This document shows positions 22,715 to 56,714 of a DNA stretch of 64,000 bases, one piece after another. The translations under genes were made by a program, and so were the position numbers. The notes under the pieces were generated by a model that had not been told where the DNA came from, did not search any database, and worked only from the letters and a program-made list of their open reading frames with translations. The DNA comes from Candidatus Rariloculaceae bacterium (lineage in GTDB: Bacteria > Pseudomonadota > Gammaproteobacteria > Steroidobacterales > Rariloculaceae), in NCBI GenBank assembly GCA_045561055.1, contig JBJKYL010000013.1:64495-128494 (forward strand), written 5' to 3'. The number at the start of each line of letters is the position of its first letter. Position 1 is the stretch's first letter.

Positions 22715-23133
22715 CGATTTGGGGGTTCCTCAGTAAATATGACCTCACCTGTGTCCGTGAGGATAACCTGCGCTCCGTTGGCACCACGCGAAAGTCTGAT
22801 ACTAGGGGCTCCATTCTTCATTGCTAAGCCGCGAACTGTCACTCTATCACCAGGTTTCAGGATATTTTTGTGCCAGCCTTCCGTGGCCATTAGCGGTGGG
22901 TTATTGAATTCGGCCATCCAGCGCACCGGATTGCCAGCTTCATCTTCTACTTCAACAGCGAGTAGCGCGTGGGGATTGATAAACATTAACTGAATGACTG
23001 TGCCGGAAATTTCTGATAGCTGATCTTCGTATCGACCAGCTGTGCCGTGATGCGCATATGCAACTGAGCTTACCAATACACTCACAGTCAGTACGTGAAG
23101 TGCGGCATGAAAGCGTCTATTTACTTTGTTCAT
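22711..23133 (-). CDS. Exported N-module-only protein (His-His/NPH), paralog S2
   Basis: MNKVNRRFHAALHVLTVSVLVSSVAYA|HHGTAGRYEDQLSEISGTVIQLMFINPHALLAVEVEDEAGNPVRW...GDRVTVRG; 140 aa. The stop overlaps the propeller start by 4 nt. Confidence 0.85.
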   Translation of the reverse strand: MNKVNRRFHAALHVLTVSVLVSSVAYAHHGTAGRYEDQLSEISGTVIQLMFINPHALLAVEVEDEAGNPVRWMAEFNNPPLMATEGWHKNILKPGDRVTVRGLAMKNGAPSIRLSRGANGAQVILTDTGEVIFTEEPPNR

Positions 23134-29856: not shown

Positions 29857-29974
29857 TAAGAAAATTAGCTGGATGCGCACATCAATATTTGCTTATAGGT
29901 AAACTCCTTGCAAACTAGATCTGTTATCTTCCTGGTGTAAAGCGCTCGCAAAATAATAATAGGTGAGGAGTCAT

Positions 29975-31670
29975 ATGATGACATTAGTAAAGAGTGTATT
30001 TGGATTTTTGGTGCTGGGTGCGCTGTGCGCTTGCACCCCAGAAACACCGATTAGTTTCTCCGTAGATCCTGAAACAGTAGCCGCTACGGACGGTCAGCCG
30101 AATATCCTTTTTGTCGTCCTTGATGATCTTGGCTTTACAGATATGGGCGCGTTCGGCAGCGAGATACCGACACCAAATATCGATCGGCTAGCATTTGAAG
30201 GCGTGCGGTTAACCAATCTGCATGCTGCCGCGAACTGTCAATCGGCTCGTATCATGTGGATGGCAAGCACGAGTATCGCAAATGGTATCGGTATCTATCC
30301 GAGAGATGTTGAGCGGCCGGCGGGTATTCGTGGGTCCTATTTAAGCCTGGAATACGCGACGATTGCGGAGCTCCTGCAGGATGCCGGATACCAAACCTTT
30401 ATGGCGGGTAAGTGGGATCTAGGGGGTTTAGAGCACTCGCCAGCAAGGCGTGGATTTGACCGTAGTTTTGCACTCCTTCCCGCATCAGCCGATTATTTCG
30501 GCAACAATCAACGCCCGATTTCTTACGAGGAGGACGGCCGGCCGGTAGCGCTAGACGAACTACCGGATGACTTTTATACGACTAATTATTTCACTGATAA
30601 AACGCTCGAGCATCTACAGGCAAGTGATCCAGATTCACCCTGGTTTGCATACTTATCTTTCAATGCTCCCCATTGGCCGCTCATGGCACCAAGACGACTG
30701 GCTCGACCGTCACGCTGGCCGTTACGATGACGGTTACGACGTGCTTCGTGAGCAACGCGTCGGGCGAGCGAGTGAGTTAGGGGTCGTGCCAGCAGGTTTG
30801 TCACTTGATTCTTTCGTTCCGGTTGCGGAGCCCTGGGATCAATTAAGCCAAGTTGAACAGCGGCGCTATTCACGTGCTCAGGAAATCTACGCGGCTATCG
30901 TTGAGCATACTGATATGAACATCGGTCGAGTTATCGATTACCTTGAAGAAACTGGACAGCTTGAAAACACAGTGGTCATGCTGATGTCGGACCATGGTGG
31001 TTCAGCTGCCGAATCCGGAGTGTCTACAGGCCGGCTACCGACCGAAGAAAATATCCGCGGCCTTGATCCCTCTGAGATTGATAATAGTTTGGAAAATTTT
31101 GGTCGTGGTAATTCATTTATCGATCATGGCATAGGTTTTGGCGAAGCGGCGAGCGCGCCATTTCGACAGTTTAAAGCGACCTTGAGTGAGGGTGGGTTAA
31201 CCGCTGCCGCGTACGTTCGTTACCCGAGTGTGGTGCCTGCCGGCGGAGTCAGCGATACGTTCTTGACTGTAATGGATATCTTGCCAACTTTTCTTGAGAT
31301 CGGCGGGACCGAGCATCCCGGTGCGGGTGAGTATCGTGGACGTTCCATTCACGGTATTCTCGGTCGGTCGTTCCTACCCATGCTAGTAGGCGAGACAGAG
31401 GTAGTTCATCCGCCGACCGAACCGTTTGGTTGGTATCGTGGCATTTCTGGCGCTCTAATTCGCGGTGACTATAAAATCATTAATGATATAGAGCTAAGTC
31501 CGGTAGCCGGTTTATCAGGGGAACGGGCCGGATTACCGTGGCGATTGTATAATTTGGCAACCGATCGCGGCGAAACTAATGATTTGGCGCTAGAATTTCC
31601 AGACCTTACAGCTGAGCTCGCGGCAGAATGGGAAGCGAATTGGCGTAGCCGAGAGGCTAGACATAATTAA
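29975..31670 (+). pseudogene. Cys-type arylsulfatase (paralog of 4286-5875) interrupted by one frameshift
   Basis: ORF 29963-30730 (likely ATG 29975 or 29978 after AGGTGAGGAG) carries PNILFVVLDDLGFTDMGAFGSEIPTPNID, NCQSARIMWMAS and FNAPHWPLMAP. The frame is then lost near 30686-30692. ORF 30567-31670 resumes DDWLDRHAGRYDDGYDVLREQR, colinear with the intact paralog (APHWPLQLPDAWLDRYAGRYDEGYDVLREER). Confidence 0.85.
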
Positions 31671-31701: not shown

Positions 31702-32715
31702 ATGACTCGTTTGGGCTTATTTTTAATGGTAGTTTTCGGTTCGACCGCAGCATTAGCCCATCATGCATTCAGTGCGTTCTATGACACTAATAATGTTGGT
31801 GATATCGAGGGCGAGCTGATTGAGACGTTCTGGATCAACCCACACGCGGGTTTCAGAATTCGTACCGACGACGGTGAAATTTGGAATATCGAGACAGCGC
31901 CCGTCAATCGCTTACAGCGGTTAGGACTTGCTGAAGCTATAGTAGTGGGCGATCGGGTTACTTTTTCTGGTGCCTTTTCGCGGCTGGGACGAAATGAAGT
32001 GCTCGCTACTAACGCGATTTTGGCGGATGGTCGGGAGGTTCTGCTAGATCCCGGTTTTGCCAATCGACTCGGACTTGCGGACCGCGTAACTTCTGGTGGA
32101 AGTGATGGAGCAGATCCCGTTGCGGTTGCTGGGGGTGCTGAGCCAGAAGGTATCTACCGTGTTTGGTCGCGCGCGCGCGGGCCGAACGATCAGGACCCTG
32201 AACGCACGTTTACATCAGCCGCTCTGGCAGCCAGAGCGGCTTGGGATCCGGTCGTTGATGATCCGGCACTTCGCTGTATTGCTCCGGGGATGCCGGTTGT
32301 GATGGATACGCCTTTCCCGATGGCGTTCGAAGAAGGAGATGGTCGAATTATTCTTCGTATAGAGCAATGGGACAGTGTCCGTAGTATTCACATCGATAGC
32401 GACCTGGACCCGCAAGCGCAACCTGACTCATTAATGGGGTATTCAGTCGGGCATTGGGAAGGACGGACGCTTGTTGTAGAGACGTCGAATATCAGCTGGC
32501 CTTATGTCGATGAGTTCGGTACGCCTAAAAGTGATGAGTTTACGATTGTTGAGCGCTTCACTTTTAGCGAGGACAGTCGTGGAATGACCTGGGAGGCGAC
32601 GTCCAATGATCCATTGACCTATGAGGGTTCTGCCTTTCTTGGTAGCGCTAGTTATGAATGGGTGCCTGGCGAAGAAATCAAGCCTTATAACTGTTCGCTT
32701 GGCGCTGCAGGCTAA
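31702..32715 (+). CDS. Exported fused N+C two-module protein, paralog L5
   Basis: MTRLGLFLMVVFGSTAALA|HHAFSAFYD, FWINPHAGF, GDRVTFSG. C-module has GIYRVWS, ALRCIAPGMP, MGYSVGHWEGRTLVVETSNISWPYV, VERFTFSED, SNDPLTYEG and PYNCS. Starts 31 nt after the broken sulfatase. Confidence 0.85.
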   Translation: MTRLGLFLMVVFGSTAALAHHAFSAFYDTNNVGDIEGELIETFWINPHAGFRIRTDDGEIWNIETAPVNRLQRLGLAEAIVVGDRVTFSGAFSRLGRNEVLATNAILADGREVLLDPGFANRLGLADRVTSGGSDGADPVAVAGGAEPEGIYRVWSRARGPNDQDPERTFTSAALAARAAWDPVVDDPALRCIAPGMPVVMDTPFPMAFEEGDGRIILRIEQWDSVRSIHIDSDLDPQAQPDSLMGYSVGHWEGRTLVVETSNISWPYVDEFGTPKSDEFTIVERFTFSEDSRGMTWEATSNDPLTYEGSAFLGSASYEWVPGEEIKPYNCSLGAAG

Positions 32716-32803
32716 CTAATTGATTTGAAATATGCTACTGCCGCAGCTCTTATAGAAGTTGCGGTTACTCTAGTTATTGCCAGTGAAAAATTAAGGGATA
32801 CTT

Positions 32804-33193
32804 ATGGTTGACTTAGAAACTCCGTTGGAAGAAATCCTTGCTTCTCGGCAACCCGGTATTAGGCTTTTCGGTGTGTTTATGAAGCCGACGCCGATGATGT
32901 TGGAAAAGCGCGGGACTGCGGAAATGGACGAGATGCGCCGGCAGGCGTTTATTTACATTTGGCAGCTGGAAGAACAGAAAAAACTTCTCTTGGCAGGTCC
33001 TTTTGAAGAAGGGACGCCAAATCAGGAGGGGATGCTGCTGCTAATGGTGGAGACACTCGAGGAAGCTGAAGCAATTGCGGCGAACGAGCCAATGCATGCT
33101 GGTGGATGGCGAGTCAATACCGTTAGGAGCTTTGCTTTGAATGAGGGTCTCGTCGTTGATACCGTGCGCAAACTGATTAGCGGGACTAGCTAG
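32804..33193 (+). CDS. YciI-like (YCII-related) small protein
   Basis: 129 aa. LLLAGPFEEG...EGMLLLMVETLEEAEAIAANEPMHAGGWRVNTVRSF resembles the YciI ferredoxin-like fold signature. Confidence 0.65.
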   Translation: MVDLETPLEEILASRQPGIRLFGVFMKPTPMMLEKRGTAEMDEMRRQAFIYIWQLEEQKKLLLAGPFEEGTPNQEGMLLLMVETLEEAEAIAANEPMHAGGWRVNTVRSFALNEGLVVDTVRKLISGTS

Positions 33194-33202
33194 GTAGTAA
33201 TA

Positions 33203-34783
33203 GTGTCTTTGAAAGACTCAAAACCATTTGAATCATCTGACAAATCTTCAGATGTCGAGCAGTTTCGTCTACGGAATTTCATCACCAAGTTGGAGGAACT
33301 CGGTGAGCTGGATATTTGCGATGAGGCGATCCAGACCGCTGATATTGCGGTGCGTCTTGAGGGTAACTCGCGGGCAGTGTTATTCAACAATGTTGGTGCA
33401 GAGCAGGTTGATATTGTTGGGAACGTCATGGCATCCCGGTCGCGAATTGCAGCCGCATTCGGTGTTGAGGAAGCTGATGTTCTTGATGAGATTCGTAGTC
33501 GCCTCAAGACACCACAAACTCTCGTGGAGCTGGAGTCATCTAAAGCACCAGTTCAGCAGGAGGTGTGGTTGGGGGATGAGGCAGACTTAACGCGGCTCCC
33601 AGTTCCGTTCCAACATAGCGGCGATGGTTCTCTATATCTGTCCTCACCTATTGACGTTGTGCAGGATGCTGCGACGGGATTACATAATATCGGTTGCAGG
33701 CGTCTTATGTTGCGCGGGCGGAGAGAATGTGGCGTCGACTTGAATGCGCCTAGCGACTTGAGAGCGATATACGAAGATGCCGTTAAGGTAGGTAAACCAC
33801 TCCCAGTTAGTTTCATCCTGGGCGCTCACCCAATTGATCATTTTACTGGGGCGATGCGTGCACCGGGAGATGAACTAGAACTGATGGCGAAGTTACGGGG
33901 CACCTCCTTGCCGGTTGTAAAATGCGTTAGCAACGATTTACGCGTGCCCGCCGATGCCGAGTACGTACTTGAAGGTTACTTAAGCCCAGAGGGGCACGTT
34001 GAAAAAGAAGGTCCATACGGTGAATTTCTCGGTTACTACGGTGGCGTAAAACAGAACCCTGTTTTTCATTTAACGGCGATTACACGACGTAAGGATGCGC
34101 TATTTCAGACGACGACGATCGCTGGTCGGCGGCTCGACTGCACGGACACCTCGCAGCTCGTTTCGTTGAAGGCTGAGCTCGGAATTTGGGAGGCGCTGCG
34201 TACTGCGGTTCGCGATCCCATCGCAGTTAATGCGACGACTGCAAGCGGCGGCTGCTTTCATGCTCGCGTTGCGCTCAGGCAGCGCGCACCTGGTGATGCG
34301 CGCAACGCAATTGCCGCAGTACTGGGTAGTTTCATGAATGTGAAGCACGTCTTTATCGTTGATGAGGATATCGATATTTTTGATGATGCGCAGATGGAAT
34401 GGGCGTTAGCATCGCGATTTCAGGCAGACCGCGACTTCGTGGTGTTCGAAGGTATGAGGTTGCCACCCGTAGATCCCTCGATGGGTAAAGCAAGAGTCAG
34501 CGCCAAAGCTGGCTTCGATTTGACTATTCCTTTTGCTCAGCGTGGCAATGACGATTGGTTAGTGCCAGTCCCGCCGAATTTATCATCGACCGAGAAGCAG
34601 TTCAGCTCAGTAGCGGATGCGCTTCGTGATGGACCGAAGAGTTTTGAGGGGTTACTTCGTAGCTTAGGTTCGCAGGATGGTAGAGAAATCGTGCTTGAGC
34701 TAGAGGTTCTGAACAATGGGGGACAACTAGATAGTAGAGCAGAAGATGGAGCGTATAGATTAAAGACGCGTGATAAAAAATAA
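33203..34783 (+). CDS. UbiD-family (prFMN-dependent) aromatic acid decarboxylase
   Basis: GTG start. FRLRNFITKLEELGELDICDEAIQTADIAVRLEGNSRAVLFNNV, HPIDHF and EGPYGEFLGYYGG (UbiD EGPFGE-type motif). 526 aa. Its stop TAA shares one base with the next ATG (TAATG at 34781-34785). Confidence 0.85.
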   Translation: MSLKDSKPFESSDKSSDVEQFRLRNFITKLEELGELDICDEAIQTADIAVRLEGNSRAVLFNNVGAEQVDIVGNVMASRSRIAAAFGVEEADVLDEIRSRLKTPQTLVELESSKAPVQQEVWLGDEADLTRLPVPFQHSGDGSLYLSSPIDVVQDAATGLHNIGCRRLMLRGRRECGVDLNAPSDLRAIYEDAVKVGKPLPVSFILGAHPIDHFTGAMRAPGDELELMAKLRGTSLPVVKCVSNDLRVPADAEYVLEGYLSPEGHVEKEGPYGEFLGYYGGVKQNPVFHLTAITRRKDALFQTTTIAGRRLDCTDTSQLVSLKAELGIWEALRTAVRDPIAVNATTASGGCFHARVALRQRAPGDARNAIAAVLGSFMNVKHVFIVDEDIDIFDDAQMEWALASRFQADRDFVVFEGMRLPPVDPSMGKARVSAKAGFDLTIPFAQRGNDDWLVPVPPNLSSTEKQFSSVADALRDGPKSFEGLLRSLGSQDGREIVLELEVLNNGGQLDSRAEDGAYRLKTRDKK

Positions 34784-37170
34784 TGCAAATTAAATCTAAC
34801 GGTCGCGCGATAGGTCAATCGCTACTTCGGCGCGAGGACCGACGTTTGATTACCGGGCAAGGCCGCTTCAGCGATGATTTTAATCTTCCAGGCCAGTGTT
34901 ACGCCCAGCTCCTTCGGTCCCCTTACGCTCATGCGACGATAGAAAATATTGATGTTAGCGAGGCGTCTCATTTGCCGGGCGTTGTTGCGATTCTGACAGG
35001 TCAACACTGGAAGGTAGACGGTCACCGTAACATTCCTCATGTTGCCGATCCGGCAGACGGATGTGACCCAAGTTTCAAGACGTTCGCGGGCCGTGGTGGA
35101 TTCGTATTTGATGACGGGCAGCCCGTTATCGCCATAGATAAAGTGCGTCATGTAGGTGAGCCTGTAGCGATTGTGATTGCGGAATCTATTGATGTTGCGA
35201 GGAACGCAGTCGAGCAGATTGAGGTGGACTATCATGAACTGCCCGCGCATTCCATGATTGAAGCTGCATTGAAGTCTGATACCGATCTGATTTGGGATGG
35301 TGCGCCTGAAAATGTTTGTCTCGATACGCATATGTGGGACGAAGAAGTGATAGTCGACGCGGCCTTTGGGAATGCGGCACACGTTATTGAGAAAAAATTC
35401 GTCACAAACCGAGTGGTAGGTGGGCAAACTGAACCCAGGAGTGGCATCGGTAGTTTCGACAAAAAAAGCGGGCAGTACTTTTTATATGCCGGTAGCCAGG
35501 GGTCCATTCGTTTGAGAAATGGTTTGGCGCATGTGTTTGGTGTTTCTCCTGACAAGGTACGTGTCGTATCAGAAGATGTCGGCGGTGGTTTTGGCCCACG
35601 AAATTTTCTTTATCCCGATTTCGCTTTGTTACCTTGGGCCGCGCGGCGTATCGGTCGACCGGTGAAGTGGACGTCGACGCGTAGCGAGGCTTTTCAAAGT
35701 GATACGCAAGGCCGAGATAATATTTTAAATCTTTCCTTCGCTTTCGACGAGCAGCATCGGTTCGTAGCCGTGAAACTGGATTTTCTCGCTAATATCGGTG
35801 CCGCACCTGTTTCGTATGCACCAGTACAAAATGTGGCGCGCCTTACGACGTCGACCTACGATGTTCCTCTTACGCATACGCGTGTTCGGGGCGTACTGTC
35901 AAATACCGTTCCGACAGGTCCGTATCGCGGTGCTGGTCGGCCCGAGCTTGTGTATGCATTCGAGAGATTATTAGATATTTATGCGAGAGAGCAGGGGATC
36001 GATCGGATTGAATTAAGACGTAACAATCTGATTAGCCCCGATGTATTGCCTTATCAGGGAAGGACGGGGCTCGTTATCGATTCCGGTGAGTTCGAAAAAA
36101 CGATGAATCTAGCGATGGAGAAAATTGATTGGACTGGTTTCGAACAGCGGCGCGCAGATTCGTTGGCTGCTGGGCGCTTTCGTGGTATCGGGCTCGCAAG
36201 CTTCATGGAAATTCCAGTTGGTTTTCCGCATGAATCGATAAGACTTACAGTTCGCGGTGATAATAGGGTTGAGATAGTTGTTGGTACCCAGTGTATGGGT
36301 ATGGGGCATGCTACGGTTTTCCCTCAAGTGCTTTCTGACCAGTTGGGTATTTCTGTGGAGTCGATCAATCTTGTGACCGGTGACACGGATCAGTCAACGG
36401 TTGGCGGCGGTTCGCACTCGGATCGATCTATGCGTCTAGTTGGCACGTTAATTCTTAAAGCGTCTGAAGCGCTCATTGAGAAGGCTATGCCGCTCGCCGC
36501 ACAGAGACTCTGCGCTGAAGAGTCTAGTATTCATTTTGAACAGGGCGGGTTCCGTAGTGACGATACGGGTTCAGTAATTGGCTTGTTCGAGTTGGTAGCC
36601 TCGTGTGAGGACATAAAAGCAAATGATGACGGGATTAGGGTTCTAGTAATCGATGCGGAGATTCATGATCGGCTGCCGGCATATCCGAATGGTTGCGCGT
36701 GCTCTGAAGTCGAGATTGATCCACAAACGGGGAAAATCGAGTTGCTCCGCCATACGCTCGTTCACGATGCGGGCTTGGAAATTAATCCGATGATCTTGGA
36801 GGGTCAGAGTCACGGCGGTATTGCCCAGGGAATTGGGCAGGCGATGTGTGAGAGTTTCGTCTATGCTGACGAGGGAGCGCAAATACTTTCCGGAAGCTTC
36901 ATGGATTATTGCCTGCCGCGAGCCGATGACTTGCCTAACTTTACTATTGGGTCAAACCCGACGGCTACGGACAGCAACCCGTTAGGGATAAAAGGTGGCG
37001 GTGAGAGTGGGACGACTGCGGCGTTAGGCGCGTTCTTTAATGCTGCCAGCGATGCTCTTGTTTCTATCGGTATAGAAGAGGTGCCAATGCCTGCAACATC
37101 GAGTCAAATATGGCAGCTAATTCAATCCGCGCGGGATGAATCTTCCAATGAGGATAGGTCGGTCGCGTAG
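34783..37170 (+). CDS. Xanthine dehydrogenase/aldehyde oxidase-family molybdopterin-binding large subunit (CoxL-like, not form I CODH)
   Basis: GQSLLRREDRRLITGQGRFSDD N-terminus. The active-site loop reads GPYRGAGRPE, i.e. the generic AYRGAGR type rather than the AYRCSFR of true CO dehydrogenases. GGGFG motif (DVGGGFGPR). 795 aa. Confidence 0.9.
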   Translation: MQIKSNGRAIGQSLLRREDRRLITGQGRFSDDFNLPGQCYAQLLRSPYAHATIENIDVSEASHLPGVVAILTGQHWKVDGHRNIPHVADPADGCDPSFKTFAGRGGFVFDDGQPVIAIDKVRHVGEPVAIVIAESIDVARNAVEQIEVDYHELPAHSMIEAALKSDTDLIWDGAPENVCLDTHMWDEEVIVDAAFGNAAHVIEKKFVTNRVVGGQTEPRSGIGSFDKKSGQYFLYAGSQGSIRLRNGLAHVFGVSPDKVRVVSEDVGGGFGPRNFLYPDFALLPWAARRIGRPVKWTSTRSEAFQSDTQGRDNILNLSFAFDEQHRFVAVKLDFLANIGAAPVSYAPVQNVARLTTSTYDVPLTHTRVRGVLSNTVPTGPYRGAGRPELVYAFERLLDIYAREQGIDRIELRRNNLISPDVLPYQGRTGLVIDSGEFEKTMNLAMEKIDWTGFEQRRADSLAAGRFRGIGLASFMEIPVGFPHESIRLTVRGDNRVEIVVGTQCMGMGHATVFPQVLSDQLGISVESINLVTGDTDQSTVGGGSHSDRSMRLVGTLILKASEALIEKAMPLAAQRLCAEESSIHFEQGGFRSDDTGSVIGLFELVASCEDIKANDDGIRVLVIDAEIHDRLPAYPNGCACSEVEIDPQTGKIELLRHTLVHDAGLEINPMILEGQSHGGIAQGIGQAMCESFVYADEGAQILSGSFMDYCLPRADDLPNFTIGSNPTATDSNPLGIKGGGESGTTAALGAFFNAASDALVSIGIEEVPMPATSSQIWQLIQSARDESSNEDRSVA

Positions 37171-37172
37171 CG

Positions 37173-38495
37173 TCAGGCGGTAGATTCCTGGGTCTCGGGT
37201 AGCCTGATCAAAAACATCAATAGTAATCCCAGTATCTGCGGGACTGCGAAGACCCAATAGACTATTTCACTACTCCAGCCGGCGGCAAATAATAGTCCAG
37301 CGAAGACTGGGCTTCCGGTAGAGCCTATTCGCCCGATTCCGATTGCCCAACCGACGCCAGTAGTACGAATGTTCGCGGGGTAGAGGCGTGCAGCGATTGC
37401 GAAGAGACCCGCAATACAACCATAAACGAAGAAACCAATTGCCGTTGCGAGGATGATAATCAGATTGAGTTGTGTTCCGACGAACGACAACGCCACGATG
37501 GCTAGCATGCAGCCAAAGAAGTACCATTTGATCATTCGGAAGAGCCCTATCCGCGTTGAATGATAGCCGAGCAGTAGCATACCGACAGCACCACCGATGC
37601 CATAGAAGATGTTTGCGGAGATACCCTGTGAGAGGGCTAATCCAGCCTCCGTAAGAATAGTCGGTAACCAGCTTTGGAAGAAGAACAGTGTTGCAAATGC
37701 GCAAAAGAAAGCGCCCCAGAGAGCAAAAGTTGAGCGCCGCGTTGCGGGTGAGAATAGTGTAGATAGCTTCGGACGTTTCTCAACTGTCTGTTTCGCCGGT
37801 AAGCTTGTTAACGCAGTCCGGCCTATACGAGCGAGAATTTCGTTTGCTTTTTTAAGTGCTTTTTTCGGTTGTTTTGTAAGTAGGAAGTCTATCGATTCTG
37901 GTAGGCCAAAAAAGACAACCGGAAGCATCAGCGTCGAGACCACACCAGCGAGCACGAAGATTGAGCGCCAACCATAGACGCCGATGATACTCGCCGCAAC
38001 TAATCCACCGAGAATTGCACCGGCCGTGAAGCCGAGATGCATAAAGCTGAGCGCGAAATTACGCCGCTCCTCTGATGAATATTCCGCGACTAGTGTGTTC
38101 AGGCTTGCGAGAATTGCTCCGATACCTAGCCCAGTCAGGAAGCGGGCGGCGATAACTAAATTGAGCGAGGGCGCTGCAGCCGTCGCGAATAATCCTACGG
38201 TTATAACCACTAAGAACGCGAGAATTGTATTGCGTCGTCCGTAGATATCTGCGAGCGGTGCAAGTAGAAAAGAGGCGACAGTCATTCCGGCAACGCCAGA
38301 ACTAAATAAGAGTCCGAGTTGTTCTGGTGTGACACCCCATTCGGTGCGAATCACTGGTGCAGCAAACGCAATAATGAACAGATCGAAACCGTCGAGTGTG
38401 TTCAGGATCCAGCAAATAATAACTACCCGTATTTGTAGCGGAGCCATTTTCTGTTGGCCTAGTGCATAAGTGACGCCGGTGTTTGACGTATTCAT
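37173..38495 (-). CDS. MFS transporter, aromatic acid:H+ symporter (PcaK/BenK-like) family
   Basis: LDGFDLFIIAFAAPVIRTEWGVTPEQLGLLFSSGVAGMTVASFLLAPLADIYGRRN matches the AAHS-family N-terminal signature. Twelve hydrophobic segments by eye. Confidence 0.85.
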   Translation of the reverse strand: MNTSNTGVTYALGQQKMAPLQIRVVIICWILNTLDGFDLFIIAFAAPVIRTEWGVTPEQLGLLFSSGVAGMTVASFLLAPLADIYGRRNTILAFLVVITVGLFATAAAPSLNLVIAARFLTGLGIGAILASLNTLVAEYSSEERRNFALSFMHLGFTAGAILGGLVAASIIGVYGWRSIFVLAGVVSTLMLPVVFFGLPESIDFLLTKQPKKALKKANEILARIGRTALTSLPAKQTVEKRPKLSTLFSPATRRSTFALWGAFFCAFATLFFFQSWLPTILTEAGLALSQGISANIFYGIGGAVGMLLLGYHSTRIGLFRMIKWYFFGCMLAIVALSFVGTQLNLIIILATAIGFFVYGCIAGLFAIAARLYPANIRTTGVGWAIGIGRIGSTGSPVFAGLLFAAGWSSEIVYWVFAVPQILGLLLMFLIRLPETQESTA

Positions 38496-38506
38496 CTATT
38501 CGTACC

Positions 38507-39367
38507 TCACTGATTTATTTTACTGTCGAGCTTTTCAACAGTATTTTTCAACGTGCCGATTCCTGTGATTTCTACTTCAACTGTGTCCCCGGGTTTCAGA
38601 TAGATAGGTGGATTATGTCCATGACCTACGCCGCCTGTTGTGCCCGTGGAGATGATATCCCCCGGATGGAGTTCTACAATACCTGAGAAATACGATACTA
38701 AGCTCGGAACATCGTGAATTAGGTCGCTAATACTAGCTGATTGCATTACCTCACCGTTAAGACGTGTTTCCAATCGCGTGTTCGACCAATTCGGTGCCGC
38801 ATCGCGTGTAACCATACAGGGCCCCACAGCTCCGGATCGCCAAAAGTTCTTGCCCTGGAACGTTGTGCGTTTCTGATAGTCCCTAACGGATCCGTCCATT
38901 AGGATTGTATATCCCGCAACGTATTCCATGGCATCAATTTTGGAGATGCGGTGGCAGCGTTTGCCAATCACGATACAGTACTCGCCTTCATAGTCGTATT
39001 GGACTGAGAGTGTCGGCATGGCAAGCGGCTGCATATGTCCGACAATGGCTTGCCGGCTCTTGGAAAAACCGCGTGGATAGGGTTCCGCTGTCCGTCCCAA
39101 CTCCTGAAGGTGATCACGGTAATTCAAGCCATGACAGATGAAATTAACTGGTTCTGAGGTAAGCGGCAGAAATGCCACGTCGGTAGGTTGAAAGTCTGGG
39201 ATTGTATTGGTGGCGGTATCTCCAGCAAGGTCAAGCGCATCGTTTTCGATGAGATTCACTAGGGTCGGATACTGATCGCCAATACGGCTACCCAGATCAA
39301 CGATTCCTTTCTCGTTGATTACACCATAAGAGTCGATGTTATCAAGCGTATAGCTACAAAGTTTCAT
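38507..39367 (-). CDS. Fumarylacetoacetate hydrolase (FAH) family protein
   Basis: FICHGLNYRDHLQE, YEGEYCIVIGK and ISTGTTGGVG are FAH-fold motifs. 286 aa, cytoplasmic. Confidence 0.85.
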   Translation of the reverse strand: MKLCSYTLDNIDSYGVINEKGIVDLGSRIGDQYPTLVNLIENDALDLAGDTATNTIPDFQPTDVAFLPLTSEPVNFICHGLNYRDHLQELGRTAEPYPRGFSKSRQAIVGHMQPLAMPTLSVQYDYEGEYCIVIGKRCHRISKIDAMEYVAGYTILMDGSVRDYQKRTTFQGKNFWRSGAVGPCMVTRDAAPNWSNTRLETRLNGEVMQSASISDLIHDVPSLVSYFSGIVELHPGDIISTGTTGGVGHGHNPPIYLKPGDTVEVEITGIGTLKNTVEKLDSKINQ

Positions 39368-39613
39368 ATCATAATCAAGTTTGACACGATTCCCTCACTA
39401 CAATCAGAGAGCGTGATTCAAAATAGTAATGAGTAAACGATAAAATATTATCACTTGCGTTAAAATCGCATCGGCTCTGCAAAATTGTGTCCATCTACAA
39501 TATCATCAAGACGGTACTACTTCCTGCTTGCCGTTATAATAAGTGATCACATTTGTGAATATGCTTCCGAATTTAGTGAGTAAATATTAATGAATCTTCG
39601 TGCAGAGTGGAAT

Positions 39614-40177
39614 ATGAAAAATAGGTTTCTACTCGCAGTTATTGCCAGTGGACTCGTTCTGTTTTCTGATTTAGCAATATCGCACCATTCTTTTGCGCAG
39701 AGACTTGCAGGCGAAATAGAGTCGCTTGAATTTTATGACGGTACGATTGATCTTTATAGGATGCTCAATCCTCACAGCGCGCTGTTTCTGACGCTCGAAA
39801 ATGAGGACGGGAGTAACGCCGAATGGCTTATAGAACTCAGTTCTGCGTCGACGCTAGGCCGCGAAGGCTGGACGCCAGAATTACTCAGTTCGGGAGATCG
39901 AGTCTCCGTCGCGATCTTAGCGTCACGGACACCGAATCGTGGGCGACTTCGCGCTATGCTGGTGCATGGAACGAGTGATACAGAATCATCGAGACTTATC
40001 GTCGCATACGGTATCCGGGGAGACACGCCGATCATGCGACGACTGCGAGATAGGCTTCCGACGTGCGTGGGTATGGAAGGAAAGCTTAATAGAGGCGAGT
40101 GTTTTGTTGTGTCGCATGCCGTTTTACAAGATTTAGAAAATGAGTTTCCAGGGCAGATGGGTTATGTGATGCCATGA
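39614..40177 (+). CDS. Exported N-module-only protein (His-His/NPH) with extra C-terminal tail, paralog S4
   Basis: ORF track starts at 39590. ATG 39614 gives MKNRFLLAVIASGLVLFSDLAIS|HHSFAQRL, then RMLNPHSALFLTLENEDG, WLIELS and GDRVSVAI. The stop overlaps the next start as ATGA (40174-40177). Confidence 0.75.
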   Translation: MKNRFLLAVIASGLVLFSDLAISHHSFAQRLAGEIESLEFYDGTIDLYRMLNPHSALFLTLENEDGSNAEWLIELSSASTLGREGWTPELLSSGDRVSVAILASRTPNRGRLRAMLVHGTSDTESSRLIVAYGIRGDTPIMRRLRDRLPTCVGMEGKLNRGECFVVSHAVLQDLENEFPGQMGYVMP

Positions 40178-40905
40178 AAATATTTATTGGTCAATTGTTA
40201 TCAGAGAGAGTAGCGTTTTTTCTTGTAGCAGTAATGGGTGGTTTCTTCAGTTCTATTGTTTTTTCGCAACCACCGGATTTCTTCGGTAGATATGTAGGTG
40301 TATTGACGATAGAAGAGCCGGCAGAATATCTCCTTACCGAGCTAGGCCAGGATTCTTACGACAACTATGATCCTAACTATGGGGATCCGCGACAGTGGGA
40401 TGACTGCGCACTAGAAGGGATCCCACCGCTTTTGTTTACGCCCGGCGTCGCGACCGTTGACCTGCTTGAGCTCGACGACGGTAATATTGAGATGCGATAC
40501 GAACGCGATGATGCGATACGCACCGTGCACATGAATTTAGAAGGATTTTCTGAGGATCAATCCGATTCTCCACTAGGTTACTCGCACGGATATTGGATCG
40601 ATAACATACTAACCATAGAAACTTCGAGTTTGGCGGGAGGCGTTGTCATTGCCCAGAAGCGCTATCCAATAAGTGTGGATGCTCATGTGACCGAGCGCTA
40701 TTGGCGTGAGCCAGGTGATAATGATTTAAAGATGGAGGTTGTGGTCGACGATCCCGTGAACTATAGAAAACCGATCAAGATCGGACGGACCTGGGTCTGG
40801 TCGCCAGATGCGCCGCTTTTGCCATGGGATTGTGTCGGCCTCGGACAAAGACATAGCGAAGATTTAGATATTAGTGAACTCAGACGCATGCTAGAAGAGC
40901 AATAA
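40174..40905 (+). CDS. Exported C-module-only protein, paralog C3
   Basis: Hydrophobic N-terminus, then WDDCALEGIPP, LGYSHGYWIDNILTIETSS, TERYWREPGD, VDDPVNYRKP and PWDCV. Ends 11 nt before the coxG-like gene. Confidence 0.75.
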   Translation: MKIFIGQLLSERVAFFLVAVMGGFFSSIVFSQPPDFFGRYVGVLTIEEPAEYLLTELGQDSYDNYDPNYGDPRQWDDCALEGIPPLLFTPGVATVDLLELDDGNIEMRYERDDAIRTVHMNLEGFSEDQSDSPLGYSHGYWIDNILTIETSSLAGGVVIAQKRYPISVDAHVTERYWREPGDNDLKMEVVVDDPVNYRKPIKIGRTWVWSPDAPLLPWDCVGLGQRHSEDLDISELRRMLEEQ

Positions 40906-40916
40906 ATTAGTTTCGG

Positions 40917-41483
40917 ATGGATATCTCTGGTGAATATCGTTTGTCGATGGGGCGTCAAGAAGTTTGGGATGCGCTCCTAGATCCATCGATTCTTCGTCGC
41001 TGTATCCCCGGTTGCGAGGAGTTAGAGCAGCTAGGGGACGATCGATATCGTGCGAAGGTCAGAGCCGCAATCGGTCCAGTCAAAGCGACCTTCACGAGTA
41101 CGCTCGAAATTACGAATTCAAATCCGCCGAATAGTTACCGGTTGGAAGGAGAAGGGAAGGCAGGCGCCATTGGTTTTGGCAAAGGTTTTTCAGACGTAAC
41201 GTTGATCGATGAAAATGGAGTCACAGTGCTTCGTTATTCGGCAGAGTTTCAGGTAGGGGGACGTCTCGCGCAACTCGGTTCTCGCCTAGTAGTTGCCGCA
41301 ACAAGAAAAATAGCGGACGAGTTTTTTAATCGATTGACTAACGATATTGATGATAGCGCAGAGCGTATAGTGCCAGACATAGCCGTGGGACCTAGCCGAA
41401 AAGCTTGGGCTTTTGTAGCGCTTGCAGGGGTAGTATTAGTAGTTGCTATTTGGTGCTTGTGGGGCTTTTGGGCTACGAATTAG
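40917..41483 (+). CDS. CoxG-like SRPBCC protein with C-terminal membrane anchor
   Basis: MDISGEYRLSMGRQEVWDALLDPSILRRCIPGCEELEQLGDDRYRAKV is the CoxG/SRPBCC signature. The C-terminus WAFVALAGVVLVVAIWCLWGFW is a single hydrophobic helix. Confidence 0.8.
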   Translation: MDISGEYRLSMGRQEVWDALLDPSILRRCIPGCEELEQLGDDRYRAKVRAAIGPVKATFTSTLEITNSNPPNSYRLEGEGKAGAIGFGKGFSDVTLIDENGVTVLRYSAEFQVGGRLAQLGSRLVVAATRKIADEFFNRLTNDIDDSAERIVPDIAVGPSRKAWAFVALAGVVLVVAIWCLWGFWATN

Positions 41484-41501
41484 ATCTTAAGGATGGGATG
41501 A

Positions 41502-41975
41502 GTGACAGTTTCAATTTCATTGACAGTGAACGGTGAATCGGTCTCCGCTGAAGTCGATTCCCGTATGCTTCTCGTAGAGTTACTACGCGAGGAACTCGGA
41601 CTGACCGGAACGCACGTTGGTTGTGATACTAGTCAATGTGGTTGCTGTGTCGTGCACATGGACGGTAGATCGGTAAAGAGCTGTTCGATTCTTGCTGTTA
41701 CTGCTAGAGATGCTGATGTGACTACAATCGAAGGTTTAGCATCGGGAGATACACTCCACCCGATGCAACAGGCATTCCACGAAAATCACGGTCTACAATG
41801 TGGTTTTTGTACGCCTGGGATGATCATGAGTGCAGTAGACCTTGTTGAGCGGAATCCGGATCCGAGCGAGGCTGAGATTCGTAAATGGCTCGACGGTAAT
41901 TTATGTAGGTGCACCGGTTACCATAATATTGTCAAATCTATAAAGGCTGCTGCTGCTGCCGTTCGGGGCGATTGA
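41502..41975 (+). CDS. [2Fe-2S]-binding small subunit of a molybdenum hydroxylase (CoxS-like)
   Basis: [11 protein letters not shown] (plant-type cluster), and [12 protein letters not shown] plus CRCTGY (second cluster). 157 aa. Confidence 0.9.
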
Positions 41976-41976
41976 A

Positions 41977-42777
41977 GTGTATCCGTTTGACTATCACCGG
42001 CCTACTTCATTGAAAGAGGCTACCAATCTGTTCCAGGCCGCGGATGATCCGCAGTGGTTGGCTGGTGGTATGACACTACTTCCCGCGATGAAGCTGCGGC
42101 TTACAGCGCCGTCAAATCTTATCGACTTAGCGGGATTAGATGATCTCAAAGGGTTGGAAAAAATAAACGGGAGTATTCATGTTGGTGCGATGACGCTTCA
42201 TGATGTTGTTGCGAGGTCACCCGATGTACGTCAGAACATACCCGCACTGGCGGCGTTAGCCAGTGGTATTGGTGATTCCCAGGTGAGGAATCGGGGTACT
42301 ATTGGCGGCTCAATATCTAACAGCGATCCAGCTGCTGATTATCCTGCCGCTATCCTGGGACTAGACGCTACTATCATCACGACATGCCGTCAGATTGCGA
42401 GCGACGATTTTTTTACCAATCTTTTTGAGACGGCTTTAGAGTCTGGGGAAATAGTCAAACAGGTTAGCTTCCCTATTCCCGACTGTGCCGGTTACGTTAA
42501 GTTTCCGAATCCCGCTTCCCGCTATGCAATCGTAGGTGTTATGGTTTCGAAAACTGGTTCTGCGGTTCGAGTCGCGATTACAGGTGCTGGCGCTTCGGCT
42601 TTTCGTGTTGCAGAGATGGAGCAGGCGCTGATGGCTGATTTTAGGCCTGAGGTATTGCACGAGATTCAAATTTCTTCTGACGATCTTAACGAGGATCTTC
42701 ATGCTAGCGCTGAATATCGAGCCCACCTCGTTAACGTCATGGCGCGACGGGCGGTCGGGCTGGCTTGCGGCGCTTAG
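41977..42777 (+). CDS. FAD-binding medium subunit of a molybdenum hydroxylase (CoxM-like)
   Basis: GTG start 1 nt after the CoxS stop. YHRPTSLKEATNLF, AGGMTLLPAMKLRL, RNRGTIGGSISNSDPAADYP and HASAEYRAHL. Confidence 0.85.
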   Translation: MYPFDYHRPTSLKEATNLFQAADDPQWLAGGMTLLPAMKLRLTAPSNLIDLAGLDDLKGLEKINGSIHVGAMTLHDVVARSPDVRQNIPALAALASGIGDSQVRNRGTIGGSISNSDPAADYPAAILGLDATIITTCRQIASDDFFTNLFETALESGEIVKQVSFPIPDCAGYVKFPNPASRYAIVGVMVSKTGSAVRVAITGAGASAFRVAEMEQALMADFRPEVLHEIQISSDDLNEDLHASAEYRAHLVNVMARRAVGLACGA

Positions 42778-42833
42778 CTTTCTGCCATTTGCGATTAATA
42801 TTAGCCCCTAACGGTTAACGACTGAGGAGAGGT

Positions 42834-44201
42834 ATGGATCCAAATACAGCAGTTGCCACTAGTCCGTTGGTTGCGCTCCTCGCCTTTCTAGGTGTCATCG
42901 TGCTCCTGTTATTCCTTATTGCGAAGTGGCGCTGGCATGTGTTTCTCGCGTTGCTGGTTCCGTTACTGTTGTTCGGGATCGTACCCGGCGTGCAGCAAAA
43001 TAATTTTATCAACGCGTTCGAGACAGGTTTTGGTTCGACGCTTGGTTCGATCGGGGTAGTAATTGTGCTTGGCTCGATTATCGCAGAGGCGTTACGTCAC
43101 ACTGGTGCTATACAAACGATTACTCGCACTATGGTGCAGGCCGTTGGCACTAAACGAATGCCGTTGGCGCTTACGCTGACCGGCTTCGTCTTAGGTATCG
43201 CGATTTTTTCTGACGTAGCCTACGTCATTCTAAATCCTCTCGTGCACTCTGCCGCTAAGATGATGGGCGTCACGGTCAGTGTTATGTCGATCGGACTCGT
43301 TGGTTCGCTGCAGTTAACTCATGCGATCGTCCCGCCGACCCCAGGTCCGCTAGCTGCAGCTGCTCTCGTCGGTGCAGATATAGGTAAGACAATTATTTGC
43401 GGTACCGTGGCCTGTCTCGCGGGCTCACTGGCTGGTTGGGTTTGGGGTCAGTACATCGTCGGTCCTCGGATTAAGACGATGCCCTCGGACGAGTATGCTG
43501 GCGAAAACTTTCTAGAGGAAGATGCGGAAGGAAAGTTGCCAGGTCCTTTGGGGTCCTATGCACCAATACTCGTGCCGATTTTGTTGATTTCTGCCCAGAG
43601 TATCTCGCGGTTATTTCTCGACGAGGGACATATCATTCGTTCAGGATTAGCTTATATAGGCTGGCCGGTCGTGGCACTAAGTGTTGGGGTAATTCTTGCT
43701 TACCGGAATATAAAAACTCCGGAACATCGTAAGGACTCCAAGAATGCATGGGTGGAAGAGGCATTAAGAGTGTCCGCTATGATTCTTGTGGTAACAGGTC
43801 TTGGTGGTTCGCTGAGTGAAATTTTGAAGGCCACTCCTGCTGTCGACTATATTAGCGGCTTCTTTGCTTCTTACGGACTCCCCTCGATTCTTTTGCCATT
43901 CGTTGTCGGAATTATTGGTAACATGATTACCGGCTCCACTACAGTTGGCGTAATTACAGCAGCGTCTCTCGTAGCACCTATGCTCGGTAGCCTAGATTTA
44001 TCTCCTGAAGCTGCGATGTTAGCCGGAGCCAGCGGTTCGGTTATGATTAAATACGTGAACTCGAGTTACTTTTGGGTTTGTACTTCACTTAGCCGAGTAC
44101 CTGTTAATGACGCGATTCTTGGTTACGGAGGAGCTACGTTCGTTGGAGGTATTGCTTCTTTTCTTATGGTTTGCCTAATGTGGGCGATGGAATTTATTTA
44201 A
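42834..44201 (+). CDS. GntP-family (gluconate/organic acid:H+) permease
   Basis: 455 aa and highly hydrophobic. N-terminus LLFLIAKWRWHVFLALLV and the internal LGSIIAEALRHTGA are GntP-like. Confidence 0.75.
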   Translation: MDPNTAVATSPLVALLAFLGVIVLLLFLIAKWRWHVFLALLVPLLLFGIVPGVQQNNFINAFETGFGSTLGSIGVVIVLGSIIAEALRHTGAIQTITRTMVQAVGTKRMPLALTLTGFVLGIAIFSDVAYVILNPLVHSAAKMMGVTVSVMSIGLVGSLQLTHAIVPPTPGPLAAAALVGADIGKTIICGTVACLAGSLAGWVWGQYIVGPRIKTMPSDEYAGENFLEEDAEGKLPGPLGSYAPILVPILLISAQSISRLFLDEGHIIRSGLAYIGWPVVALSVGVILAYRNIKTPEHRKDSKNAWVEEALRVSAMILVVTGLGGSLSEILKATPAVDYISGFFASYGLPSILLPFVVGIIGNMITGSTTVGVITAASLVAPMLGSLDLSPEAAMLAGASGSVMIKYVNSSYFWVCTSLSRVPVNDAILGYGGATFVGGIASFLMVCLMWAMEFI

Positions 44202-44254
44202 GAACTATTTTGTACTGCGTTGCGTAGTTCGATAGTTTTAGATGGTGCTCAAAC

Positions 44255-45322
44255 GTGTCTGATAAATACAATATTCTTTTCCTTGGTGCTTCATACGGTT
44301 CGTTGTTTGCAGCGAAAGCCGCGCTCGCGGGCCATTCGGCTCACTTGATTTGTCTTCCGGAAGAGGTTGAGCTCATCAATAGTGAAGGTGCGGTTGTTCG
44401 TCTGCCGGTTCGCAGTATTGATTCGCCAGTGGAGCTCAATAGTAAGACAATGGTTGGTAGGGTCTCGGCGGGTGCTCCAGAAGATACCGATCCTGCTGAT
44501 TATGACCTGGTTGTTTTGGCTATGCAGGAGCCACAGTACCGGTTTCCCGCTGTGAAGGACCTACTTCAGAAGGTTGGTGCTGCGGCTAAACCGTGTATGT
44601 CGATAATGAATATGCCACCGCTCGCTTACTTAAAGCGAATTCCGAGCATAAATACGGATGTTCTCAGGGACTGCTATACAGATGCTTCTGTATGGGACAG
44701 TTTTAATCCAGCACTAATAACATTGTGTAGCCCGGATCCACAGGCATACCGGCCGCCGGACGAGAAATGTAATGTGCTTCAGGTAGGACTGCCGACCAAC
44801 TTCAAAGCGGCCCGTTTCGAGTCCGACGAACATACCGCGCTTCTCCGTCAGATCGAAGACGATATTCAAAACATTCGTTACGAAGTTGATGGTAATGAAG
44901 TCGAGTTGCCTGTGAAGCTACGTGTGCATGAGTCGTTATTTGTGCCACTTGCTAAATGGGCCATGCTTATGACCGGTAATTACCGCTGTGTGCAGGAAGA
45001 GAAGATGATTCCGATTAAGCAGGCCGTTCATTCCGATACAGAAGTGTCTGCCGAGATTTATAATCTGATTGCTGAGCTCTGCGTTAGTCTTGGCGGTGAT
45101 CGTAACGATCTCGTACCGTTCGAGAAATACGGGAATGCAGCGTTATCGTTACAGAAACCTTCATCGGCCGCGCGCGCATTGCTAGCTGGGGCGCCTTACA
45201 TTGAGCGCGTTGACAGACTTATACAGACGTTAGCGTCGGCCCAGGGGATGCGGTCGGCACACATTGATCGAACGGTAACGTTTGTCGATAGTTGGTTAGG
45301 TAAAAATAGAGCATCTGACTGA
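44255..45322 (+). CDS. Putative NAD(P)-binding oxidoreductase, ketopantoate-reductase (ApbA/PanE)-like fold; weak call
   Basis: GTG start. YNILFLGASYGSLFAAKAALAGHSAHLI resembles the GxGxxG-type start of ApbA-family reductases. The remainder I could not assign. Confidence 0.35.
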   Translation: MSDKYNILFLGASYGSLFAAKAALAGHSAHLICLPEEVELINSEGAVVRLPVRSIDSPVELNSKTMVGRVSAGAPEDTDPADYDLVVLAMQEPQYRFPAVKDLLQKVGAAAKPCMSIMNMPPLAYLKRIPSINTDVLRDCYTDASVWDSFNPALITLCSPDPQAYRPPDEKCNVLQVGLPTNFKAARFESDEHTALLRQIEDDIQNIRYEVDGNEVELPVKLRVHESLFVPLAKWAMLMTGNYRCVQEEKMIPIKQAVHSDTEVSAEIYNLIAELCVSLGGDRNDLVPFEKYGNAALSLQKPSSAARALLAGAPYIERVDRLIQTLASAQGMRSAHIDRTVTFVDSWLGKNRASD

Positions 45323-52587: not shown

Positions 52588-52605
52588 TGATATAGATGCT
52601 GAAAA

Positions 52606-53511: not shown

Positions 53512-53515
53512 CGTC

Positions 53516-54244: not shown

Positions 54245-54274
54245 TAAAGCTTCCTAATAATTTCTACGATTCGA

Positions 54275-55189: not shown

Positions 55190-55202
55190 AGAGAAACACC
55201 GG

Positions 55203-55847: not shown

Positions 55848-55855
55848 CGGAATAG

Positions 55856-56701: not shown

Positions 56702-56714
56702 GGCCTTTGTTGCT

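Follow-up and report, generated by a model that had tools for sequence, protein, structure and literature searches.

The 64-kb stretch of contig JBJKYL010000013.1 analysed here, from a metagenome-assembled genome of the marine gammaproteobacterium Candidatus Rariloculaceae bacterium and referred to as the window, carries within positions 31702-45322 a gene cluster that encodes a UbiD-family decarboxylase and a CoxL-like molybdenum (Mo) hydroxylase. We interpret this cluster, with moderate confidence, as a catabolic locus in which a UbiD (de)carboxylase dependent on prenylated flavin mononucleotide (prFMN) is joined to a xanthine-oxidase-family Mo-hydroxylase module, distinct from carbon monoxide dehydrogenase (CODH), for the use of an aromatic or heteroaromatic acid. 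The adjacency of the two genes is far above chance and recurs in different orientations across Alpha-, Beta- and Gammaproteobacteria, thus there is strong evidence for a functional link between their products. The conserved core consists of four plus-strand genes, encoding a fused DUF6152 protein (31702-32715, 337 aa, Pfam DUF6152), a YciI-like protein (32804-33193, 129 aa, Pfam YCII with 26.8 bits against a cutoff of 24), the UbiD-family decarboxylase (33203-34783, 526 aa, Pfam UbiD_N, UbiD and UbiD_C) and the CoxL-like large, molybdopterin-binding subunit (34783-37170, 795 aa, Pfam Ald_Xan_dh_C, MoCoBD_1 and MoCoBD_2). The open reading frame (ORF) calls at 32804-42777 are borne out by Pfam and NCBIfam, and the genes, coordinates and junctions listed in a preliminary description of this sequence all match the ORF map and the domain assignments; the description had missed the fused DUF6152 gene with which the core opens.

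Conserved association of UbiD and CoxL

Seven independent loci of the related clade were read (L001/L002, L004, L089, L097, L098, the P0005 contig and the window; UbiD identity 74-88%), and the order DUF6152(fused)-YciI-UbiD-CoxL is kept in all seven, while the flanks vary. Outside the clade, the scan of one genome per species gave 594 loci of the UbiD subfamily, and the counts reported below for related loci cover the best 80 of them (50-59% UbiD identity). A CoxL orthologue lies within 10 kb of UbiD in 26 of these 80 loci under a strict criterion, which required a single alignment, and in 34 under a second, looser one. These neighbouring orthologues, found mostly in alpha- and betaproteobacterial genomes, are 42-49% identical to CoxL of the window and have the same (A/G)PYRGAGR loop where it is readable. 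The genes occur in three arrangements, i.e., CoxL after UbiD on one strand, separated by at most 30 nt or overlapping (Alphaproteobacteria, e.g., Paracoccaceae L094 with a 4-nt overlap and Neorhizobium L091), divergent UbiD and CoxL pairs, and the order CoxM-CoxG-CoxS-CoxL-enoyl-CoA hydratase (ECH)-UbiD in Burkholderiales (Paraburkholderia L085 and L092). The link between UbiD and a Mo-hydroxylase large subunit, which the preliminary description had drawn from this one locus, is thereby extended to three proteobacterial classes.

The UbiD stop and the CoxL start overlap as TAATG at 34781-34785 on the plus strand, where TAA and ATG share one A, as read directly from the sequence. The translational coupling proposed from this junction has its overlap in the window but is a trait of the lineage, for the close relatives L001 and L004 have a 41-nt gap at the same place.

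The UbiD protein and its YciI-like neighbour

Besides containing all three Pfam domains, the UbiD protein scores 284.9 bits with TIGR00148 (cutoff 244.85) and hence is a member of the family. Its closest solved relative in a PDB search is PtHmfF of P. thermopropionicum (6h6v, E 3e-57). Residues N162, H209, E253, R166, R167, E269 and E274 are invariant in 28 sequences of the subfamily and aligned with their PtHmfF counterparts. As in the Fdc1/UbiD structures, we take these residues to be the Asn, His and Glu ligands of Mn2+/K+-prFMN and the catalytic Arg/Glu pair, with the motif E-x-E-G-P-[FY]-G-E. The protein belongs to an uncharacterised UbiD subfamily with more than 3,600 matches at E <=1e-20, and a search of a plasmid collection returned six UbiD matches, all with generic annotation. 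As the preliminary description stated, no ubiX gene was found in the 64-kb window, where tblastn with UbiX of a related cluster reached a best E of 0.5; UbiX is present in 11 of the 80 related loci. The prFMN cofactor would have to be supplied by a ubiX gene elsewhere in the genome.

The YciI-like gene precedes UbiD by 9 nt. Its product is 93% identical in L001 and 74% in L004, was found by jackhmmer in loci of the Rariloculaceae clade only, and among solved structures has only a marginal match to HI0828. It could possibly be a lineage-specific accessory protein of UbiD. The UbiD accessory proteins VdcD and LpdD (PMC10865409) are likewise small conserved proteins encoded directly upstream of UbiD, but the protein of the window is YciI-like, unrelated to them in sequence and confined to this clade. 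A relationship of the YciI-like protein to LpdD/VdcD was considered and set aside, as no sequence link was found.

The CoxL subunit and its probable electron-transfer partners

CoxL has the domains and the C-terminal Glu motif of xanthine-oxidase-family large subunits, including VGGGFGPR and GGGESG, and the active-site loop GPYRGAGRPE. Among 120 CoxL homologues, 114 have a (G/A)PYRGAGR loop and 117 have Pro in place of Ala before the loop Tyr, the Pro form being the signature of the clade and the RGAGR part being common with the form-II loop AYRGAGR. The CoxL sequence is 100% identical to an NCBI protein record from Candidatus Rariloculaceae. The score of every NCBIfam equivalog is below its cutoff, and the best PDB matches are 8uem, 7dqx and 1t3q.

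The genes for CoxG (SRPBCC; 40917-41483, 188 aa, Pfam COXG E 1.4e-31), the 2Fe-2S small subunit CoxS (41502-41975, 157 aa, Pfam Fer2 and Fer2_2) and the FAD-binding medium subunit CoxM (41977-42777, 266 aa, Pfam FAD_binding_5 and CO_deh_flav_C) follow on the plus strand 3.7 kb downstream of CoxL, with gaps of 18 nt between coxG and coxS and 1 nt between coxS and coxM. They are probably the cognate electron-transfer partners of CoxL, because their betaproteobacterial orthologues are co-operonic with UbiD and the CoxL orthologue. CoxM is 49-51%, CoxG 41-49% and CoxS 52-57% identical to the betaproteobacterial subunits encoded in contiguous M-G-S-L operons with the CoxL orthologue, and CoxS and CoxM are orthologous to genes co-operonic with it in L051-L060, L065, L084 and L085. 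By contrast with this identity of about 50%, CoxM shares only 26% with its counterpart from an unrelated Mo enzyme in L076, which makes the earlier description of the displaced genes as the matching partner set likely to be right.

The downstream block is far less constant than the core. The complete string of N and C modules (described below), G, S, M, a GntP-family permease and a 355-aa ORF occurs in the window and L001/L002; the P0005 contig has G-S-M without the N/C pair, directly after the fumarylacetoacetate hydrolase (FAH) gene; L098 has N-C-G-S, L004 and L097 have N-C-G only, and L089 lacks the block altogether. In the 80 related loci, S or M was found within 10 kb in only 8-9, compared with 26 for CoxL, and most of the alphaproteobacterial UbiD-CoxL pairs have neither S nor M nor G within that distance; thus an L gene apart from the S and M genes is normal for this CoxL clade. 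Some lumazine clusters of Streptomyces similarly encode only the molybdopterin subunit in the cluster (PMC12391406).

The CoxG protein has the architecture of a quinone-shuttle CoxG; it combines a COXG/SRPBCC domain with a predicted C-terminal membrane helix and is encoded with xanthine-oxidase-family subunits. Its hydropathy reaches a maximum of 2.9 at residue 167 within a hydrophobic tail of ~25 residues (162-185), which is present in the close relatives and absent in the betaproteobacterial orthologues. CoxG of Mycobacterium smegmatis takes menaquinone out of the membrane and presents it to the FAD subunit, and CoxG homologues also accompany xanthine-oxidase-family enzymes other than CODH (PMC12202499). 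The protein studied there shares with ours the SRPBCC domain, linker and C-terminal membrane helix and the association with S, M and L genes, whereas CoxG of the window is the likely partner of a non-CODH hydroxylase, and its gene comes after those of two exported proteins, at a distance of 3.7 kb from the gene for L. By analogy, electrons from the hydroxylase would probably pass through CoxG to the respiratory quinone pool.

Genomic setting and proposed pathway

Between CoxL and the downstream block lie two minus-strand genes, for a major facilitator superfamily (MFS) transporter of the aromatic acid/H+ symporter (AAHS) type (37173-38495, 440 aa) and an FAH-family enzyme (38507-39367, 286 aa, Pfam FAA_hydrolase). 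Among the subfamily models, TIGR00895 matches the transporter by far best (E 5e-99; 331.8 bits, below the cutoff of 418.55), with MhpT and PcaK next, and the gene is present in six of the seven clade loci, being absent in L089. PDB relatives of the FAH-family enzyme include HpaG and 5-oxopent-3-ene-1,2,5-tricarboxylate decarboxylase. In L004 and L097 its position is taken by a gene of the Amidohydro_2 family, to which PicC belongs.

The gene neighbourhoods in other taxa add genes of ring catabolism. The betaproteobacterial clusters encode an FAD monooxygenase, a VOC protein, a fumarylacetoacetase with its N domain, an alpha/beta hydrolase, UbiX and XdhC, and in Neorhizobium L091 the context includes ECH and an FAD monooxygenase. 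Genes for uptake also accompany this UbiD elsewhere, with TctC in 24 loci and NMT1-like proteins in 14, in addition to ABC or MFS components. The catabolism of an aromatic or heteroaromatic acid, already proposed in the preliminary description, is therefore a reasonable, though unproven, reading of the setting, with the AAHS-type MFS, FAH and the ring-catabolism genes of related clusters in its favour; the furan variant mentioned there found no support, as discussed below.

The betaproteobacterial module was seen in the order FAD monooxygenase-VOC-fumarylacetoacetase-alpha/beta hydrolase-CoxM-CoxG-CoxS-CoxL-ECH, together with UbiD and UbiX in Paraburkholderia L085 (3382-16840) and without either in Noviherbaspirillum malthae L093 (1949-13084). 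Because Noviherbaspirillum carries the same cluster without UbiD, the comparison suggests that UbiD is an optional add-on, which would extend the betaproteobacterial pathway to a carboxylated or dicarboxylated precursor. We take this module to follow the same logic as the nicotinate and picolinate pathways (NicAB-NicC-NicX-NicD; PicA-PicB-PicC), i.e., Mo-dependent hydroxylation, flavin monooxygenation, ring cleavage and hydrolysis. The window differs in having no adjacent monooxygenase or dioxygenase gene, and UbiD is not known to be part of those pathways. In the alphaproteobacterial loci L039 (9899-18007) and L094 (7460-15519), UbiD is followed by CoxL with no S, M or G gene within 10 kb, and the pair adjoins genes for a glutathione S-transferase (GST), several VanA-type Rieske oxygenases, HpcH aldolase, SMP-30 lactonase and DUF427. 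This context is typical of the catabolism of methoxylated, lignin-derived aromatics.

In the pathway that we propose, an aromatic or N-/O-heteroaromatic carboxylate would be taken up via the AAHS-type MFS symporter. The Mo enzyme would put a water-derived hydroxyl on the ring, or oxidise an aldehyde, and UbiD would remove the ring carboxyl, these two steps occurring in either order. The downstream keto- or hydroxy-acid could then be processed by the FAH-family enzyme, or by the Amidohydro_2 protein in some relatives, while the 2Fe-2S subunit, the FAD subunit and CoxG would serve as electron-transfer partners, the membrane-tethered CoxG passing electrons to quinone.

Several observations weigh against this interpretation. 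Neither the UbiD subfamily nor the CoxL clade has any characterised member, and the scores of the MFS and GntP transporters are under the curated family cutoffs. No ring-hydroxylating monooxygenase or ring-cleavage dioxygenase gene lies next to the cluster in the window, which also contains no regulator and, by tblastn, no ubiX. The operon structure is judged from gene spacing only, because scans for consensus promoters and terminators gave no more matches than shuffled sequence. Moreover, S and M genes are missing from the 10 kb around CoxL in L004, L097, L089 and most of the alphaproteobacterial loci; CoxL may therefore be served by partners encoded elsewhere, and the S and M subunits of the window might not be exclusive to it.

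Exported DUF6152 proteins

The N and C modules that precede coxG correspond to the two halves of a fused DUF6152 protein, each with a signal-peptide-like hydrophobic N-terminus and with a conserved Cys pair. The N module (39590-40177, plus strand, 195 aa, Pfam DUF6152 E 1.6e-15) has His-His after the signal peptide; the C module (40174-40905, plus strand, 243 aa) matches no Pfam family but has its homologue in the C half of the fused proteins (tblastn E 1e-13 to 1e-18). The two genes share a 4-nt ATGA overlap, and the 11-nt gap between the C module and coxG reported earlier was read directly. PF19649 (DUF6152), for which the gathering cutoff is 27 bits, recognises the N module with 57.4 bits, the fused protein with 47.7 and N2 with 81.

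At least nine paralogous DUF6152 units, each with a signal peptide, His-His, an NPH motif and a Cys pair, occur in the window. They comprise fused units (1512-2693, 7718-8728, 18541-19641, 19750-20817 and 31702-32715), split N/C units (15001-16189, 39590-40905 and 46851-45497) and a lone N gene (22711-23133), scattered among genes for sulfatases, a TonB-dependent receptor, NHL propellers, Amidohydro_2, YceI and metallo-beta-lactamase proteins. His20, His21 and His48 are invariant in an alignment of 46 sequences, and the mature protein should begin with His-His, because a small-x-small motif directly precedes it. This N-terminus resembles that of histidine-brace or CopC/YcnI-type copper proteins, a similarity that serves as a lead only. 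The AlphaFold2 model of a fused paralogue (pLDDT 87.5, pTM 0.82) consists of an N domain with an OB fold and a barrel like those of lipocalins and fatty acid-binding proteins (FABP); Foldseek against the PDB matched OB folds and FABP/CRBP barrels, at the level of fold only. Searching with a profile at an E limit of 1e-3 gave 25,406 sequences, each representing a cluster at 50% identity. Our literature search found nothing on the DUF6152 family, and in a metagenome scan the C module matched only two short contigs, nearly identical to each other and uninformative about the N/C-coxG linkage.

The fused protein and the N/C pair could be working parts of the pathway, co-expressed with coxG and serving in periplasmic binding or in metal-dependent capture or pre-processing of the substrate, and we regard this as unlikely, albeit less so than the other alternatives considered here. 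A fused orthologue lies directly upstream of YciI-UbiD-CoxL in all seven clade loci, and N-C-coxG is kept in L004, L097 and L098 despite the missing S and/or M; the tight spacing of the N, C and coxG genes and the flanking of UbiD by periplasmic solute-binding genes (TctC, NMT1-like) in other taxa agree with such a role, and the modelled lipocalin/FABP-like barrel of the C module would suit small hydrophobic ligands. On the other hand, with at least nine units in 64 kb, adjacency to anything is expected. The P0005 contig lacks the pair, with coxGSM directly after FAH, and no DUF6152 gene is near UbiD/CoxL outside the clade (0 of 80 loci). The N and C genes are also the fastest-evolving of the block (72/64% and 64/59% identity).

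Since P0005 does without the pair and the family has undergone a massive expansion, the N/C pair before coxG looks like a lineage-specific, dispensable insertion from an expanded paralogue family and not like operon design. The preliminary description had presented the co-transcription of exported genes with hydroxylase subunits as unexpected; the arrangement is not a conserved one, for it varies among the relatives (P0005, L004, L097, L089), and the presence of these genes ahead of coxG is best explained by the expansion and mobility of DUF6152 in the lineage. A function of the N/C pair as a periplasmic ligand- or metal-binding protein is speculative, and the conservation of the fused copy upstream of YciI leaves room for a functional role.

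Alternative pathways

The Mo enzyme could instead oxidise an aromatic aldehyde, e.g., vanillin or another lignin- or algal-derived compound, and UbiD decarboxylate the resulting hydroxy- or methoxy-benzoate. We consider this rather improbable. The models of archaeal glyceraldehyde oxidoreductase do recognise the three subunits (alpha 457, beta 219 and gamma 233 bits), but these scores are far under the equivalog cutoffs of 790, 350 and 290, and with the large subunit a slightly higher score is reached by the CODH group-5 model. The alphaproteobacterial UbiD-CoxL pairs situated among VanA-type O-demethylases, GST and HpcH aldolase speak for this route, as does the existence of well-known hydroxybenzoate decarboxylases in the UbiD family (VdcC, AroY); the UbiD of the window, however, reaches only 222 bits with the VdcC model, whose cutoff is 650. 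No sequence feature separates aldehyde oxidation from ring hydroxylation.

Similarly doubtful, in our opinion, is a more far-reaching hypothesis, in which UbiD and the often "orphan" (G/A)PYRGAGR subunit would form a dedicated hydroxylation-decarboxylation couple, maybe physically associated, for an unrecognised class of aromatic or heteroaromatic acids, in Rariloculaceae with the DUF6152 proteins as metal-dependent or ligand-capturing periplasmic partners and the YciI-like protein as a novel accessory or maturation factor of UbiD.

A furan pathway, with UbiD as HmfF and CoxLSM as the furoyl-CoA dehydrogenase HmfABC, is very unlikely. It would account for the best solved relative of UbiD being HmfF of P. 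thermopropionicum and for the label "2,5-furandicarboxylate decarboxylase 1" that many members of the subfamily bear in JGI annotation, and hmf clusters do join a Mo hydroxylase with UbiD/UbiX (PMC8091172). In Cupriavidus basilensis HMF14, HmfFG/HmfABCDE likewise pairs a heteroaromatic-acid UbiD with a three-subunit Mo hydroxylase. Canonical hmf clusters are, however, hmfABCDE or hmfABCDFGE and include the CoA ligase HmfD, a furoyl-CoA synthetase, and the hydratase-family hydrolase HmfE, which acts on 2-oxoglutaroyl-CoA (PMC8091172), whereas the window has no HmfD, no ECH-family HmfE gene and no adjacent UbiX, has another gene order and contains CoxG. The earlier statement that a CoA ligase is absent proved correct, since no AMP-binding signature was found in any frame of the window, and such a signature occurs in only 6 of the 80 related loci. 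Furthermore, HmfF His296 (His296/297), reported to be key to furan specificity (PMC7976604), is aligned with Thr316 of UbiD; this Thr does not vary within the subfamily, and residues 303-322 contain no His, although the alignment is only approximate here owing to a 5-residue insertion. PtHmfF as a whole aligns only distantly with the protein, and the CoxL homologues are annotated coxL, not hmfA. The hmf route, and with it the furan-dicarboxylate reading of the preliminary description, was thus rejected on gene content, gene order, the missing CoA-ligase signature and the replacement of His296 by Thr.

A pterin or lumazine route, in which a lumazine dehydrogenase (LuDH)-like Mo enzyme and an isomerase would precede a UbiD-family xanthine-8-carboxylate decarboxylase, is more improbable still. 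Our literature search found no characterised UbiD and Mo-hydroxylase cluster of this type beyond lumazine cluster I of Cupriavidus sp. LA-1, the only one in which a novel UbiD, together with UbiX, accompanies a Mo dehydrogenase of three subunits (PMC12391406). It is a precedent for the couple proposed here, in that a heteroaromatic ring is hydroxylated by the Mo dehydrogenase before the divergent UbiD takes off a carboxyl group. That cluster, however, always has the amidase-signature isomerase DHLI with its LA1_0143 partner and usually a pterin or cytosine deaminase (PMC12391406), and Pfam scans found no isomerase, partner or deaminase in the window, nor is there an amidase gene in the annotated related loci. 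LuDH is described as lying outside the COX group (PMC12391406), and CoxL of the window is closest to COX-group structures. The lumazine route was rejected on the missing isomerase and deaminase.

Finally, a form-II-type CODH or another respiratory CO/H2-type enzyme with UbiD next to it incidentally is scarcely credible, despite the top NCBIfam match to the CODH group-5 model, the best PDB match to the Mo-CODH of M. smegmatis and the presence of CoxG, because the GPYRGAGR loop lacks the Cu-carrying Cys of AYRCSFR, the score of 475 bits is half of the 950 cutoff, TIGR02416 and NF040766 are under half their cutoffs, Pfam scans of window ORFs of at least ~100 aa contained no CoxD/E/F-type (ATPase, VWA) or XdhC-type family, and the adjacency to UbiD recurs across classes. 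The CODH identity was rejected on the active-site loop and the model scores, so that the preliminary description was right to exclude it and wrong only in spelling the loop as AYRGAGR.

Predicted transcription units and other features of the window

The spacing of the genes suggests three transcription units, i.e., (DUF6152 fused)-YciI-UbiD-CoxL, a leftward FAH-MFS unit, and a rightward unit N-C-coxG-coxS-coxM-GntP-orf355, in which the co-transcription of N/C with coxG is plausible from the gaps. FAH and MFS are co-directional with an 11-nt gap and FAH upstream; what was earlier called a convergent MFS/FAH pair is convergent in the sense that the pair as a whole converges on CoxL. The CoxL and MFS stop codons are 2 nt apart in the window (37168-37175), and in L001 the 3' ends overlap by 19 nt (13998-14016). 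This leaves no space for a terminator between the stops of the window, hence the 3' ends of the two transcripts would be antisense to one another.

The FAH-MFS pair diverges from the N/C string across an AT-rich intergenic region of 222 bp (39368-39589), which presumably holds the promoters of FAH-MFS to the left and of N-C-coxGSM to the right. One promoter-like site was found in it (39417-39446), no more than chance gives, and no significant RNA structure, the folding being no better than that of shuffled sequence. A riboswitch or structured leader in the intergenic regions was rejected, since there was no Rfam match either. A palindromic stretch at 39543-39558, GTGATCACATTTGTGA, comprises overlapping GTGATCAC and CACAnnTGTG inverted repeats and is situated 30-45 nt 5' of the start of the N gene. 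This stretch is a possible operator; a gene for a regulator is not present nearby.

Past coxM, the plus-strand string runs on after 56 nt into the gene for the GntP-family permease (42834-44201, 455 aa, Pfam GntP_permease, TIGR00791 259 bits against a cutoff of 293), which among the related loci is kept only in L001/L002, and then into the last gene of the string, the 355-aa Rossmann-like ORF (44255-45322). This ORF has an N-terminal GxSxG Rossmann-like motif and is kept after the GntP gene in L002; it has no Pfam or NCBIfam match, and the PDB search gave only a marginal match to ketopantoate reductase.

Just upstream of the core, genes for a TonB-dependent receptor (27037-29612, minus strand) and a sulfatase (29963-31670, plus strand) are each split over two or three frames, while their L001 counterparts are intact with 852 aa and 558 aa; the split genes are either pseudogenes or the result of assembly indel errors. 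Farther downstream, a metal-uptake block at 51631-58102 encodes two ZnuA-like binding proteins, an ABC-3 permease, an ATPase and DUF4198, with a cytoplasmic-type sulfotransferase (57230-58102) after the metal-uptake genes, and is apparently unrelated to the UbiD/CoxL cluster.

Significance

UbiD enzymes are sought as catalysts of reversible (de)carboxylation, and only a handful of their substrates are known. The analysis of this locus defines a large uncharacterised UbiD subfamily that is repeatedly tied to one clade of Mo-hydroxylase large subunits. It also points to DUF6152 as a huge group of exported His-His proteins that has so far escaped study. The L subunit of the clade is often encoded apart from S and M, which is relevant to the annotation of "orphan coxL" genes. 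UbiD-CoxL represents a concrete two-enzyme unit that can be tested in cultivated hosts, namely Paraburkholderia, Neorhizobium, Pigmentiphaga and Caballeronia.

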